From: Candidatus Bathyarchaeota archaeon
GTDB taxonomy: Archaea > Thermoproteota > Bathyarchaeia > Bathyarchaeales > DTEX01
Reading direction: 5' to 3'
NCBI GenBank assembly: GCA_963714275.1
Contig: CAVQNT010000002.1
Location: 736,001 to 800,000, forward strand
DNA: 64,000 nt
Shown: piece by piece, positions 14,740 through 27,473 of the stretch
How the letters are laid out: every line of letters begins with the position of its first letter
How positions within the stretch are numbered: the first letter of the stretch is position 1
The notes under the pieces: model-generated
The model's database searches: none
What the model saw: only the letters and a program-made list of their open reading frames with translations
What the model was told of the DNA's origin: nothing
Translations under genes and position numbers: made by a program

Positions 14740-15216
14740 ATGAGCTTTCAAGATAGAAGTTTAACAGCTAGAAAGCTTTTAGAGATTATGGGTGTAGCCA
14801 TAGCAGTTACTCTTCTTTTGAACAATACAAACTCGATCTATGGTTTATTATCAACAACATCTACTATTGGAACAACAGGTGTTGTTTCTTCAGCTAGTCT
14901 AGGAATTTACTCTAATAGTCAATGCACTACCGCTCTTTCTTCAATTGACTGGGGGAGCCTTAGTCCTGGAGGAAACAAAAACGTCACCATCTATGTGAAA
15001 AATACCGGAAGCGTGGCTTTGACTTTGACCCTTTCAACAAGCAACTGGACACCAACAAATGCTCCTACATACTTAACCTTAACATGGAATTACGCTGGCG
15101 CTACAATCAATTCAAACGCGGTGGCAACGATCATTTTAACCTTAAGGGCCTCGTCTGGTATTTCGGGTATAAGCAGCTATCAGTTCCAAATAACCATTAC
15201 GGGAACACAGGTTTAG
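14740..15216 (+). CDS. secreted all-beta protein, TasA/CalY-like fibre subunit candidate
   Basis: Signal peptide ending IYG, N-terminal strand LLSTTSTIGTTGVV, IDWGSLSPGGNKNVTIYVKNTGSVAL core, C-terminal FQITITGTQ strand, no membrane anchor. Confidence 0.7.
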   Translation: MSFQDRSLTARKLLEIMGVAIAVTLLLNNTNSIYGLLSTTSTIGTTGVVSSASLGIYSNSQCTTALSSIDWGSLSPGGNKNVTIYVKNTGSVALTLTLSTSNWTPTNAPTYLTLTWNYAGATINSNAVATIILTLRASSGISGISSYQFQITITGTQV

Positions 15217-15218
15217 AC

Positions 15219-15228
15219 CTCTTTTTTT
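15219..15228 (+). terminator. oligo-T archaeal terminator candidate
   Basis: CTCTTTTTTT just after the TAG stop of 14740-15216. Confidence 0.45.
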
Positions 15229-15346
15229 ATTTAAAAGTTTTATTGAAAAGTTTTTAGGATATATGAGTTTTATGTTATAGAAGATTCATACCCAGGGTCT
15301 ATAAAGAAAATTCTCAAATCATATAAATTATTACTGCCAATAAAAG

Positions 15347-15577
15347 ATGAAGAAAATGTTGGATGACGTCTTTATAAAAATACTTTCAGAAACTAAAGCA
15401 AGCAAGTGGATGAGCATGCCAAAGTTACGCGGGATTCTTCATGATTATCTTCAGGAAAAAGCTAAAGCTGAGCTAGTTATGGATTTTTTGGAAAAGTACT
15501 TTATTGATGTTAACAACGATAAAAGTCTAGTCAGGCTAAATGATTTGGCTAATAAATTGTTTGAAAAACCTTTATAA
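15347..15577 (+). CDS. small wHTH-like protein
   Basis: 76 aa with a pattern similar to 14431-14625 (DD..IL...W.S......DFLEKYFIDVN). Confidence 0.55.
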   Translation: MKKMLDDVFIKILSETKASKWMSMPKLRGILHDYLQEKAKAELVMDFLEKYFIDVNNDKSLVRLNDLANKLFEKPL

Positions 15578-15581
15578 TAGT

Positions 15582-15869
15582 CTATAGACGCATATTTTCT
15601 AGAACTTCTTTTATTTTATCGTAATCTTTAAGGAAGGTTTTCCCCTTTTCAGTTGTTTCGTATATTTCTTTCCCGTTCTTTTCGTATTTTCTGAGAAGAC
15701 CTCCCTGCATTAAACATTCAGCATAAAAATTAAATTGCGAAAGGCTTAAGTTGCAACGATAAATAAGCCGCGTTTTTCTTGAGCTCGAATTTGAAAATTC
15801 GAGTATACAAGCTATGATGTCCACTCTGCTTCTTTGTGTAAACCTAGCTTTACTTTTCACATCCGACAA
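15582..15869 (-). CDS. ArnR1-like winged-HTH regulator, paralog C
   Basis: QRSRVDIIACIL...RKTRLIYRCNLSL...YETTEKGKTFL. Confidence 0.9.
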   Translation of the reverse strand: MSDVKSKARFTQRSRVDIIACILEFSNSSSRKTRLIYRCNLSLSQFNFYAECLMQGGLLRKYEKNGKEIYETTEKGKTFLKDYDKIKEVLENMRL

Positions 15870-24608: not shown

Positions 24609-24670
24609 GAGACATAGTAAATTAAGTGAACCACAACGCAACTTTTTCAAATAGTTAATGGGGACATAAT

Positions 24671-24886
24671 CTTGCGGATATTGTCGTCAAAATCTCTGGA
24701 AAGAGTATAACACAGAAATACGACTCCTCTGCGCCTCAAGGAGTAAGAGGCCGCAATGCCGACATAACTCTAGTAAGAAAGATGTTAGGTTGGGAACCAA
24801 GGGTTAGCTTGGAAGAGGGATTACGTAGAACCTACAAATGGATAGAGAAGCAATGTATCAGTCAGGATATATGTGAAGCTAGTTAA
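24671..24886 (+). pseudogene. diverged duplicate of the 3' end of the GME-like epimerase
   Basis: LADIVVKISGK...YDSSAPQGVRGRNADITL...TYKWIEKQC. Bases 24714-24771 are identical to 23002-23059 (58 bp). Confidence 0.9.
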
Positions 24887-24987
24887 TCTGAACATAGGAG
24901 AAACCATTGATAAAAAGATTACATAAGTCTTCATGATAATCACATTCTAAGAACATATGTTAAAATAAAGTCATCGGGAAATGTAGA

Positions 24988-25896
24988 ATGGTTGTGAAAG
25001 TTACAATAGGAATTTGTGTTAGAAACGAAGAAAAAACGATTAAAAAGGCAGTTGAAAGTGTTCTTCATCAAGATTATCCACATAATCTTATGGAAGTAAT
25101 CTTTGTTGATGATGGCAGTAGTGACTCCACTTTATCAATCATTAATGATTATGTCACTAATAAAATGGATGTTATTACCAAGGTATTTAGCGGAAAATGG
25201 CAAGGTTTAGGGAGAGCCAGAAATATAGTGGTCAAAAATGCCAAGGGGGACTACATAATATGGGTTGATGGCGATATGGTATTGAGGGACGACTATGTGA
25301 GAAAACAAGTTAAGTTTATGGAAGAAAATCAAAGAGTAGGTTTAGCTGGAGGGAAATTCGGAATTTTCCATGGAAAAAATCTAATTGTGGCTTTAGATAA
25401 TGCTGAATTTTTGGCAAAGGATTATCTTTTTGGAAAAAAAACAAGATCAAAGCCAATACTCTATCACCTTGGATTTGCTGGATCGATTTTAAGAGTAAAG
25501 TCAATTGAACAAGTTGGTAGTTTCAACCCCAATATTAAGGGAGCAGGAGAAGATGTTGAGATCATCCACAAAATCACAAAGGCTGGTTGGCTAATTCATA
25601 CAGCTAATGAGGCTATTTTTTATCACAGAAGAGAAGATACACTGAGAAAAGTCTGGAAGCAAAACAAGCAATACGGATACGACTATTATTTCCTGAAACT
25701 CATTGATGTATGGAATATCGAACCAAAGGTTCTATTCTATGGCATTTTGTACCCTCATATAGCCTATAAATTGTTACACGAAAAAAGAGTCTTTTTATTA
25801 ATTTTCTATTATTACTACAAGAAACTCGGTTGGATGCTCGGTTTCCTTAAAGCCCATATAGATAGCAAAATCCTCCCCAGAAACATGCCCAGATAA
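24988..25896 (+). CDS. GT2 glycosyltransferase
   Basis: VTIGICVRNEE, VDDGSSD, WVDGD and GEDVE motifs. Confidence 0.9.
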   Translation: MVVKVTIGICVRNEEKTIKKAVESVLHQDYPHNLMEVIFVDDGSSDSTLSIINDYVTNKMDVITKVFSGKWQGLGRARNIVVKNAKGDYIIWVDGDMVLRDDYVRKQVKFMEENQRVGLAGGKFGIFHGKNLIVALDNAEFLAKDYLFGKKTRSKPILYHLGFAGSILRVKSIEQVGSFNPNIKGAGEDVEIIHKITKAGWLIHTANEAIFYHRREDTLRKVWKQNKQYGYDYYFLKLIDVWNIEPKVLFYGILYPHIAYKLLHEKRVFLLIFYYYYKKLGWMLGFLKAHIDSKILPRNMPR

Positions 25897-26095
25897 ACTG
25901 GTCTACAAGCTGAGCTGACTTATTAACATTTTTTGGGGATTCTCATGACTGAAACCTCTAGACTGATGGCAGAAAGATGCTTTTACGGTGAAGGATAGCG
26001 AATTGAAATACCATTTAAAAGCACTTGACATATATGATGTCTTTTGATTCTAGGTGTGAATGGCGCGCGCAATTAGGCTTTGGAGAGAGAGAAAA

Positions 26096-27473
26096 CTACG
26101 CAGAACCAGCTTTAATGGCGTCGACAAGTATCTGTCCATACTTGTTAACTGTACCTCCTGTTACTCCTTCTTCTGCTACATATTCTTGTATTTCTGCCAT
26201 CGAACTATCTGGCCCCCTCCAATCCCAACTCATATAATGAATACCCCACTCGTTAAAGATCTGCAAGGTGTTAGCAAACCATGTGTCTTCTCCAGACGTA
26301 TATATGTCCGCTCCTATTCCTCTTATAGAAATGGGATAACTCTGGCTGTAATACAAAACTTTCTCTTCTGTGCAAATGTTTTTGATTGTTGTGTAATCTG
26401 TTGGTCTACTGCTTATTGGTTCCTGAACACCTACACTGCCATAATATCTGAAGCAACTAGCAGTATAAGCAAGATTATTTGCAGAATCTGAGAGTGGTGC
26501 TGAGTCAATCCAATTTAAATTCATCCATGGATCATTAAGGTTACCCCAGTAACCTAATGTAGTGGCATATCCAACGATGATTAAATGATGAATATAACCC
26601 TTGGTATCCTCTTTTGCACGTATACCATTAATAATGTTCTGCCATACTGTTTGCCACTCATTCAGTTTGGTTTGAGTGTTCCAACTTGACCTGCACCAAG
26701 GCTCGTCCCAAAATTCAAGGATTAAATTATTATGGGAACCTAAAGCATCAACTTGTTCAACAACATAATTTACAAATGCATTAGCATTTGGTATAAGGGC
26801 AGTTGGATAAGCCATATCCTCAAGCCCAGCGTATGTTACTGAGAAAGTAACTAAATCGAGATATATGCCATGATTTGCACATCTAGTAAGCAAGTCATCA
26901 AGTATCTGCCTAAATGTCATGGTTCCCTGTTCAGTTGCGCTGGTTGGGTTGTTAATCCACCATTCAGCAGTAAATATATATCGTAGACAGTTAATGCCGT
27001 AGGATTGCATCTTGTTAAGAATCAAGTCAACTTTACTCTGGTAGTAAACGCCCCATCCTCCCCAACAACCAGATGGATCATCATAAGCGAAGTCTCTATT
27101 CACGCCTCTCAGGTAAACTATCTGTCCAAGGTCGTTTTTAATTTTGTTTTCTTCCACATGTAAAGGTCGAGTGGCTGGTGAATCGTTAATAGTCGTTGTT
27201 CCCGAAGTGGCAGTTGTTGTCGAAGTTATTGTTGTAGTGTAAGATGTTGATGTGGTACTCGACGTTATTGTTGATGTTCCAGTTGTTGTTAAAGTTGTGG
27301 CAGTGCTTGCGGTGGTTGTCGAAATATATGAGATATGACCAGAACTTCCTATAGTGGATTCTACCGTCAACAGGGAAGATGCCCCCATAACCTGAATAGC
27401 AGTAATTATAATAGAAACTAAGCATAAGACAAATCCTCTTTTTAAGGGACTGTTGTTCAGTTTTAGTCTCCAC
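26096..27473 (-). CDS. secreted GH5-like TIM-barrel protein with Thr-rich linker (frameshift near 27420 separates the signal peptide)
   Basis: LHVEENKIKNDLGQIVYLRGVN, GINCLR, LEFWDEP and GIHYMSWDW motifs. The upstream frame gives METKTEQQSLKKRICLML-VSIIITAIQVMGASS. Confidence 0.82.

Follow-up and report, generated by a model that had tools for sequence, protein, structure and literature searches.

A short N-terminal strand tag shared by a small secreted immunoglobulin-like protein and a GH5-like protein may dock one onto the other in a Bathyarchaeia-like archaeon

The window analysed here, a stretch of 64,000 nucleotides (G000:C2:736001-800000, in a genome of 10 contigs and 2,643,548 bases), encodes a small secreted protein with a predicted immunoglobulin (Ig)-like domain and, on the opposite strand, a protein resembling the glycoside hydrolases of family 5 (GH5), and the two share a short peptide at their N-termini. 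The best reading of the data is that this peptide is an accessory strand tag through which the GH5-like protein docks onto the small Ig-like protein; we hold this reading tentatively, at a little below an even chance. Throughout, G-numbers denote sampled genomes, L-numbers fetched loci, P-numbers homologue proteins, and X1, X2 and X4 sequencing runs. The parts of the two proteins are as follows.

14740..15216, plus strand: gene of the small secreted Ig-like protein, a precursor of 158 amino acids (stop included), from the open reading frame (ORF) call
14740..14844, plus strand: predicted Sec-type signal region of the small protein, MSFQDRSLTARKLLEIMGVAIAVTLLLNNTNSIYG, combining a basic n-region and a hydrophobic core with a small residue conserved at the putative -1 position
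14845..14892, plus strand: N-terminal strand tag of the mature small protein, LLSTTSTIGTTGVVSS, with the near-invariant Gly of S-S-G in the family and a predicted local distance difference test score (pLDDT) below 50
14893..15213, plus strand: PapD/MSP/ASH-like Ig beta-sandwich core (AlphaFold2 (AF2) pLDDT about 90; fold matches up to Z 8.8)
26096..27388, minus strand: GH5-like ORF from its first ATG, 430 amino acids (stop included), most of whose homologues carry PF00150
27326..27373, minus strand: strand tag of the GH5-like protein, LLTVESTIGSSGHISY, which follows MGASS and was identified by motif search, alignment and weight matrix
27170..27325, minus strand: Thr/Ser-rich linker of 52 residues from tag to barrel, unique to the window copy in the homologue alignments
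26099..27169, minus strand: predicted GH5-type (beta/alpha)8 barrel from RPLHVEENKI (alignment; AF2 model of homologue P0047; Foldseek)
26318..26320, minus strand: Gly codon at the nucleophile position (IRGIGA in the window, I[GS]E[IFTM]G in relatives)

The tag of the small protein, LLSTTSTIGTTGVVS, starts at 14845 and that of the GH5-like protein, LLTVESTIGSSGHIS, at 27373 (minus strand), which are the places at which an earlier, sequence-only reading of this DNA had reported a shared N-terminal peptide. Both read LLxxxSTIGxxGx(V/I)S directly after signal-like regions, and the pattern LL...STIG..G.[VI]S had exactly two matches, these two tags, in a six-frame translation of all 10 contigs. Conservation of the motif, put forward as a check at the time, was found in homologues of both proteins. 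The 38 small-protein homologues of about 150 amino acids (nearest, 97% identity and 158 amino acids) carry [YFSAT][GA] and then hydrophobic-hydrophobic-S-x4-hydrophobic-x-S-S-G-x-V/I before the first strand of the domain, with the Gly kept in at least 90%. GH5 relatives retain hydrophobic-x-[KRGS]-S-S-G-x-I in 7 of 11 database hits, the other four being N-terminally short, and the tag is also present in 3/3 genome relatives, L032, L034, L035 (L029 probable), and in about 15 distinct metagenome ORFs.

Weight matrices were used after hmmsearch with 14-16-column tag profiles had missed the small protein itself and S/T-rich ORFs had topped the ranking. A matrix of 31 small-family tags, from which the window copy and its three nearest relatives had been left out, ranked the GH5 tag second among 19,544 six-frame ORFs (16.7 bits) at the exact tag position; the converse matrix, from 10 GH5-homologue tags, ranked the small protein 14th of 19,544 (13.3 bits), again at the exact position, and a small-family tag from G015 scores 21 bits on it. 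Judged from the sequences, the likeness of the tags is real but short, and goes beyond chance. Tagless folds also exist (the C-terminal domain of L023, dockerin-bearing forms and a G029 match over positions 44-149; for GH5, L030, L031, L040, L073 and L076) and the spacing from tag to barrel varies, so the tag appears to be an accessory module dispensable for both folds. Two other origins of the motif were considered and rejected: a general leader of all secreted proteins, since the other signal-bearing ORFs of the genome and of related loci do not have it, and an archaeosortase signal, as there is no C-terminal signal and G000 yields no PF09721 match over cut-off (best 17 bits).

Modelling suggests that the GH5 tag binds the small protein. 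The complex prediction that the sequence-only reading had proposed, small subunit with GH5 N-terminal peptide, was run as three chains (the mature small subunit twice and the GH5 ORF fragment 23-52, with custom alignments), and the tag docked as a strand with a score of 0.80 (runs 0.78, 0.80 and 0.80) against 0.00-0.06 in the controls; calibration of the score mark (58/80 solved complexes, 2/110 mismatched pairs) applies only roughly to a three-chain job with custom alignments. Contact agreement among the runs was at least 68% and partner pLDDT at least 62. On the GH5 side the modelled interface comprises residues 24-41 of the submitted ORF (LTVESTIGSSGHISYIST), of which the stretch IGSSGHISY (residues 30-38) lies alongside subunit residues 118-112 in antiparallel and residues 34-39 in parallel orientation. 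The predicted acceptor slot is thus bordered by SIDWGSL (mature 33-39) on one side and by the C-terminal strand YQFQITI (112-118) on the other, and the most conserved residues of the small family (W36, G37, I118, T119 and G120) fall within this interface.

The monomer models would be compatible with such a slot. The mature small protein was modelled by AF2 with a pLDDT of 82.8 and a predicted template modelling score of 0.74; its core reaches about 90, residues 1-15 stay below 50, and no beta ladder forms at residues 31-43, beside the C-terminal strand. The tags are unstructured in both monomer models, that of the small protein and that of P0047 for GH5. In Foldseek, VIA and VIA-wide searches, the small protein matched PapD-like chaperone domains (Caf1M, FimC), MSP (with FFAT peptides), ASH and the N-terminal domain of GH123 at Z 7.2-8.8, a range that may reflect a common arrangement only. 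PapD-like and MSP folds are a class known for strand-mediated binding, and we conclude from the models that the fold of the small protein is probably a PapD/MSP-like Ig fold, with no recognisable likeness to TasA.

The description of the small protein as a TasA-like subunit is not supported: an hmmscan against Pfam at E up to 1 gave no Peptidase_M73 (PF12389) match, and only POPDC1-3 (0.046) and a HYDIN-like Ig domain (0.094). No Pfam or NCBIfam family cut-off was reached by the small protein, its other weak hits being ArlG (0.0083; 16 bits against a cut-off of 110) and choice-of-anchor D (0.19); the label 'FlaG/FlaF', which one source gives to two homologues, was not adopted, the ArlG match lying far below cut-off. 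A search of the PDB sequences with the small-family profile returned nothing below E 0.1 and no TasA chain up to E 10. No TasA, AbpA or thread chain is among the fold matches listed for the small protein, an absence from a list that is not proof of different folds, and the Tafi pilus chain 9p0a_C comes no higher than rank 40, with Z 6.2. In the protein atlas the nearest neighbours are unnamed Bathyarchaeota clusters (0.98); DUF1102 (0.88) and camelysin (0.85) clusters fall below the meaningful level and are leads only. The family itself is common, being present, often more than once per genome, in 126 of the 401 genomes sampled for the class, and one homologue is named as coming from a Bathyarchaeia metagenome-assembled genome.

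The small-protein ORF was called as 14716..15216 (plus strand); its actual start is the ATG at 14740, since homologues have 158 amino acids and begin MSFQD or MNFQD. From there the protein runs through a basic n-region, a hydrophobic core and NNTNSIYG to the tag and the domain. The family alignment has a conserved [YFSAT][GA] before [ALV][LIV] at the putative cleavage point, and we infer that the signal is cleaved after YG, which would leave a flexible extension of about 16 residues ahead of an Ig domain of about 107. In archaeal type IV pilins (class III signal peptide), by comparison, the cleavage motif precedes a hydrophobic helix that is retained in the mature protein; a conserved [KR]-[GA] ahead of a hydrophobic stretch and a conserved Glu are both absent from the small-family alignment. 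The small protein ends in ...QITITGTQV and the GH5-like protein in ...KAGSA, neither with a C-terminal transmembrane (TM) segment or anchor, so that the statement that both proteins lack a membrane anchor holds for the C-termini, to which it has to be confined. It is also true, as had been noted, that the window contains no SipW-type or S26B peptidase. The single S26B peptidase of the genome (TIGR02228, 74.6 bits, G000:C2:861300-861815) is encoded 61 kb beyond the end of the window and about 110 kb from the small gene, and is the sole TIGR02228 match, leaving the operon with no dedicated SipW-type peptidase. This carries no weight, because the sole signal peptidase of the genome is already of the archaeal S26B type.

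Searched against Pfam at E up to 1, the GH5-like protein of the window gave no hit. Its assignment to GH5 is based on its homologues: PF00150 is found in 10 of 11, and the AF2 model of P0047 (pLDDT 83; folded as a barrel from L54, with residues 22-47, i.e. the signal end and the tag, below 50) matches GH5 mannanases and endoglucanases at E 6e-14 to 1e-10 in Foldseek. GH5 enzymes use two catalytic glutamates, the acid/base in an NEP motif and the nucleophile on strand 7. The window copy retains the acid/base Glu, in DEP instead of NEP, and has Gly at the nucleophile column, where all 14 other aligned relatives have Glu; because of these two changes it is GH5-like rather than a typical retaining GH5, and its barrel more likely binds glycan than cleaves it. 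It also stands apart in the distance from tag to barrel, 52 residues against 7-8 in the closest homologues, 3-6 in most others and 3-12 overall.

The mechanism that we propose would run as follows. The small protein would be Sec-exported as a PapD/MSP-like Ig domain with its flexible stretch of about 16 residues in front, and the same stretch would follow the GH5-like protein's own signal region, ahead of the 52-residue Thr/Ser stalk and the nucleophile-less barrel. The tag would add a strand to the small-family domain, in the place flanked by SIDWGSL and the C-terminal strand, tethering the GH5-like protein non-covalently through strand complementation. Small subunits, having both tag and slot, may link up head to tail as an oligomer or fibre, and since they hold both, a protein with the tag only, such as the GH5-like one, would end such a chain.

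Gene content is consistent with a partnership. At E up to 1e-30, GH5 relatives were found in 15 of the 401 genomes, 13 of which have the small family, and in the two that do not (G171 and G362) the GH5 protein is a tagless multidomain form. The small family is present in 8/8 sampled genomes with a tag-bearing GH5 (seven clear, G417 probable). In G000, G037 and G038 the small and GH5 genes are separated by 1.4 to 16 kb, and G228, whose tagless GH5 is 1.8 kb from small-family genes, also has the two within 25 kb.

A number of observations nevertheless weigh against docking, and several of them favour another explanation. Co-occurrence is confounded by phylogeny, the small family being present in 73 of 103 genomes of the family that holds most GH5 genes, and none of 32 metagenome GH5 loci, many of them on short contigs, has a small-family ORF in its flanks. 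Nor was a modular display of diverse cargo, as envisaged by the sequence-only reading, borne out: GH5 is the only family that carries the tag alone, and no second one was found in this genome or among 760 ORFs of the fetched related loci. The margin of the small-tag matrix is slim (16.7 bits for GH5 against 16.4 for the third ORF), and hhalign of the two family alignments aligned only the signal end and the tag, with a modest P of 0.0044 and a probability of 7.8%. The rough calibration of the docking score counts on the same side.

These modest statistics, like the empty flanks of the metagenome loci, would also be expected if the tag acted in cis, as the first loose strand or spacer of its own protein or as a processing or juxtamembrane motif, the likeness having arisen independently or through a copied leader, and the docking being a modelling effect in which the GH5 tag passes for a look-alike of the subunit's own strand. 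Such a role would fit the variants of the small family in which S-G-x-I stays directly before the domain even when a TM segment (P0051) or a helix of pilin type (G228, L046:8155-8790) comes first, which also counts against docking in trans; it would fit, too, P0032, whose Q/T-rich linker precedes the tag rather than following it, and the distance of only 3-6 residues between tag and PLHVEG in most GH5 relatives. We regard a role in cis as unlikely, if a serious contender, as the tag is unpacked in both monomer models, both folds have tagless versions, 52 residues part tag and barrel in the window copy, the complex-job controls gave 0.00-0.06 against 0.80, and the motif is absent from the other secreted proteins of the genome and related loci.

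Docking might also be real and the partner another. The tags of both proteins could address a third component, such as a DUF2206 or DUF1616-like ectodomain or the S-layer, with the small protein a fellow client and not the receptor. The GH5 gene stands in a glycosyltransferase-rich locus, back to back with the following gene.

27574..29789, plus strand: DUF2206 membrane protein read as two ORFs (27574-28575 and 28572-29789; PF09971, 196 bits), divergent from GH5

DUF2206, and not the small gene, is the conserved divergent neighbour of GH5 (window, G038, G053, G168, G131 and 12 of 32 metagenome loci), which counts against the small protein as the partner, and small-family genes are mostly not adjacent to GH5 genes. 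A DUF1616-like candidate is likewise at hand at 17359-17979 (plus strand), a protein of 206 amino acids that has a TM segment at its N-terminus and matches DUF1616 weakly (26.9 bits, below the cut-off of 31.6); its gene stands between those of the small protein and of the glycosyltransferases, and G378 has a similar protein near its GH5 gene (L049:10814-11497). A third partner seems improbable to us all the same, given that the modelled docking onto the small protein is specific relative to the controls and that a profile search finds no small-family-like acceptor domain in DUF2206 or DUF1616.

The last and most direct difficulty concerns the start of the window GH5-like gene, upstream of which lie the following features.

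27374..27460, minus strand: in-frame signal-like region (L)NNSPLKRGFVLCLVSIIITAIQVMGASS, with no canonical start codon and a CTG at 27460 as candidate start
27186..27473, minus strand: overlapping ORF in another frame with a GTG start, METKTEQQSLKKR, which could supply the start only via a +1 shift, e.g. on CTT-AAA-AAG (27447-27439)

Upstream of MGASS the GH5 frame reads ...LNNSPLKRGFVLCLVSIIITAIQV, an n-region followed by a hydrophobic core. The signal-like stretch LKRGFVLCLVSIIITAIQVMGASS shares its frame with the GH5 ORF, and that frame is open from 27496 (466 codons), with no ATG, GTG or TTG upstream of 27388. Close GH5 homologues (L053, L054) have an ATG, a K-rich region and then a hydrophobic region, all in frame. 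A 1-bp shift had been placed near 27420; the frame break stands, the position at 27420 cannot be fixed, and the sole run of at least five identical bases near the break is AAAAA at 27445-27441. An error private to this assembly was rejected as the cause, because run X2 has a contig that spans 27267-27518 without a gap and with two substitutions relative to the window. Contigs were compared over 26800-27600, with partial cover and low depths throughout. At 27335, X1 and X2 contigs (each of depth below 5) have C for A, which changes the variable x of S-S-G-x-I from His to Gln; the X2 substitution at 27423 falls within the hydrophobic core; and divergent X4 contigs lack three bases at 27248, inside the Thr-rich linker, with the frame kept, and differ also at 27238 and 27254. 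Possible readings of the start are the CTG at 27460, a +1 shift on CTT-AAA-AAG, or gene decay.

Under the last of these the tag would be ancestral to the subfamily, the window copy would no longer be made as a secreted protein, and nothing would be displayed. The missing canonical in-frame start, with a break that recurs in the X2 contig, and the loss of the nucleophile (Glu to Gly, together with NEP to DEP, unlike 14/14 relatives) both speak for decay and against docking of this copy, and many other window genes also read as two ORFs. Decay is nonetheless a poor fit to a frame that stays open for 466 codons with tag and barrel framework intact, and to in-frame contig differences that amount, leaving aside those of X4 at 27238 and 27254, to two substitutions (27335, 27423) and one frame-keeping three-base deletion (27248). 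The candidate CTG lies 7 nt after a GGTGGAG (27474-27468), and the gain of a linker with the loss of the nucleophile would equally fit a shift toward a glycan-binding tip. We therefore rate decay as having a low probability.

Docking of the GH5-like protein through its tag, the reading that we prefer, has several counterparts among known systems. TasA of Bacillus is reported to form its filament via a donor strand (PMC9674648). In Bacillus subtilis, TapA donates its N-terminus to TasA and thereby complements the TasA beta-sandwich (PMC10151520). As far as that account goes, the window pair is alike in that a second, differently folded secreted protein carries a complementing N-terminal segment, with the most conserved residues of the subunit in the interface. 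It is unlike TapA-TasA in that the small protein has no Peptidase_M73 match, a PapD/MSP-type fold and no dedicated SipW, and in that the tag partner is a stalked GH5-like barrel rather than an Ig-fold protein and is known here from computation alone. The thread of Sulfolobus acidocaldarius consists of Saci_0406, and its neighbour Saci_0405, which has a tail but no acceptor site, is the proposed cap (PMC9715654). The GH5-like protein, with its strand, would similarly be a candidate cap, as far as Saci_0405 is described there. Unlike the thread, to which no sequence relation was found, the head here has about 107 residues and 7-8 strands against 11 in the published description, and the proposed cap is an enzyme-like domain encoded 11 kb away.

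AbpA bundling pili of Pyrobaculum, Tafi pili and cannulae are described as chaperone-free archaeal donor-strand matrix filaments (PMC9245690, PMC12337348, bioRxiv 10.1101/2024.12.30.630787), and in these accounts none is reported to carry an enzyme through the strand alone. The N-terminal strand extension outside the subunit's own fold, a feature of the donor-strand filament class, is present in the small protein. Chaperone-usher pili and MSP would share with it the structural class, its best matches being PapD-like, MSP and ASH domains; unlike chaperone-usher pili, the system has no usher or chaperone, an archaeal host, and a donor strand N-terminal to a complete-looking domain. As in cohesin-dockerin pairs, a short module would attach a glycoside-hydrolase-type protein to a non-catalytic beta-sandwich scaffold protein, with the difference that the module is an N-terminal strand of about 16 residues rather than a calcium-binding dockerin of about 60, and the acceptor is not a cohesin. 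Overall, the computational support makes a variant of strand complementation plausible.

Other members of the small family differ in context and architecture. G000 holds only four small-family matches at three loci, all of them small proteins by profile search. Two paralogues lie in provirus-like regions that resemble each other, G000:C2:274907-275341 (L050:4899-5348) and G000:C6:338632-339067 (L051:4624-4956, in two frames), with neighbours matching tail completion/Neck1 (phrog_5, 2.1e-25) and tape measure (phrog_58, 2.5e-30) proteins, and both carry variant tags, AAVYQATITGTGKIVS. A divergent paralogue belongs to a cassette conserved in three relatives, L017:2593-7601 (G037), L019:256-4782 (G038) and L026:6111-12483 (G053), together with an AglJ-like GT2, an exosortase/archaeosortase-family protein of 683-686 amino acids (PF09721, 102.8 bits; TIGR04178, 56.7 bits), a small secreted protein and a membrane protein of about 300 amino acids.

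Longer forms were also observed. Those of 351-357 amino acids, L021:2310-3365 (minus strand), L022:3504-4577 (plus strand) and L024:1902-2969 (plus strand), and also P0036, carry at the N-terminus a small-family domain whose tag is shortened, followed by a middle region and, at the C-terminus, a dockerin (PF00404, 29.5 bits); those of G015 and G017 adjoin a canonical small subunit and HTH_45 regulators. L046:8155-8790 (G228:C5, plus strand) has its small-family domain behind a leader, ...KNAKALSPVIATIILIAVTV..., which we take to resemble that of archaeal type IV pilins, and is encoded next to two canonical small subunits and 1.8 kb from a tagless GH5 protein of 602 amino acids. A search for longer fused small-family forms yielded only P0051, a metagenome protein of 644 amino acids with a TM segment, a tag-like VILNGSI, a small-family domain and about 480 residues that by eye resemble a beta-helix.

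Regulators of one family flank the small gene in the window, and the pairing of HTH_45 with the small gene recurs in the relative G015 (L022).

13828..14097, minus strand: HTH_45 winged-helix regulator beside the small gene (PF14947, 74.5 bits)
15582-15869, minus strand, and 17100-17315, plus strand: further HTH_45 regulators (PF14947, 63.9 and 28.2 bits)

Elsewhere in the window, genes at 18171-18862, 27574-29789, 29922-31025, 37462-38692 and 40539-41875 (GT2, DUF2206 and GT4-type transferases) each read as two ORFs, consecutive or overlapping, the stop and next start within DUF2206 overlapping as ATGA (28572-28575); such breaks may reflect assembly errors, true gene splits or decay. Two overlapping ORFs at 39050-40244 (plus strand) encode a second glycoside-hydrolase-like protein, with an N-terminal hydrophobic anchor and then a Thr-rich stalk, TTTTITTTSTTTTTNTTTTT; it has no S-S-G-x-I tag and no Pfam hit at E up to 0.01.

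The archaeal donor-strand filaments known so far come from a few cultured thermophiles and halophiles, and to our knowledge little is known of how uncultured sediment archaea build a matrix and retain enzymes at their surface. No paper joining Bathyarchaeia and a donor strand was found in our literature search. If the docking is real, a peptide of 16 residues would suffice to attach a protein to a small and very common Ig-like scaffold, and the two would form a compact natural pair of tag and catcher that works non-covalently. Such docking would give a large family of 'hypothetical' proteins a function and the group a testable model of matrix assembly, and would link a polysaccharide-synthesis locus (glycosyltransferases, DUF2206 and GH5) to a protein scaffold. 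The virus-encoded copies of what would be a host surface subunit are of interest in their own right. A broader possibility, which we consider rather doubtful at present, is that Bathyarchaeia-like archaea possess a chaperone-free strand-tag system in which the small family would polymerise head to tail, other proteins would join through the strand alone (GH5 as a glycan-binding tip) or through strand plus domain (the dockerin and beta-helix-like fusions), and proviruses would encode subunits of their own; this would amount to a new matrix fibre with programmable ends.

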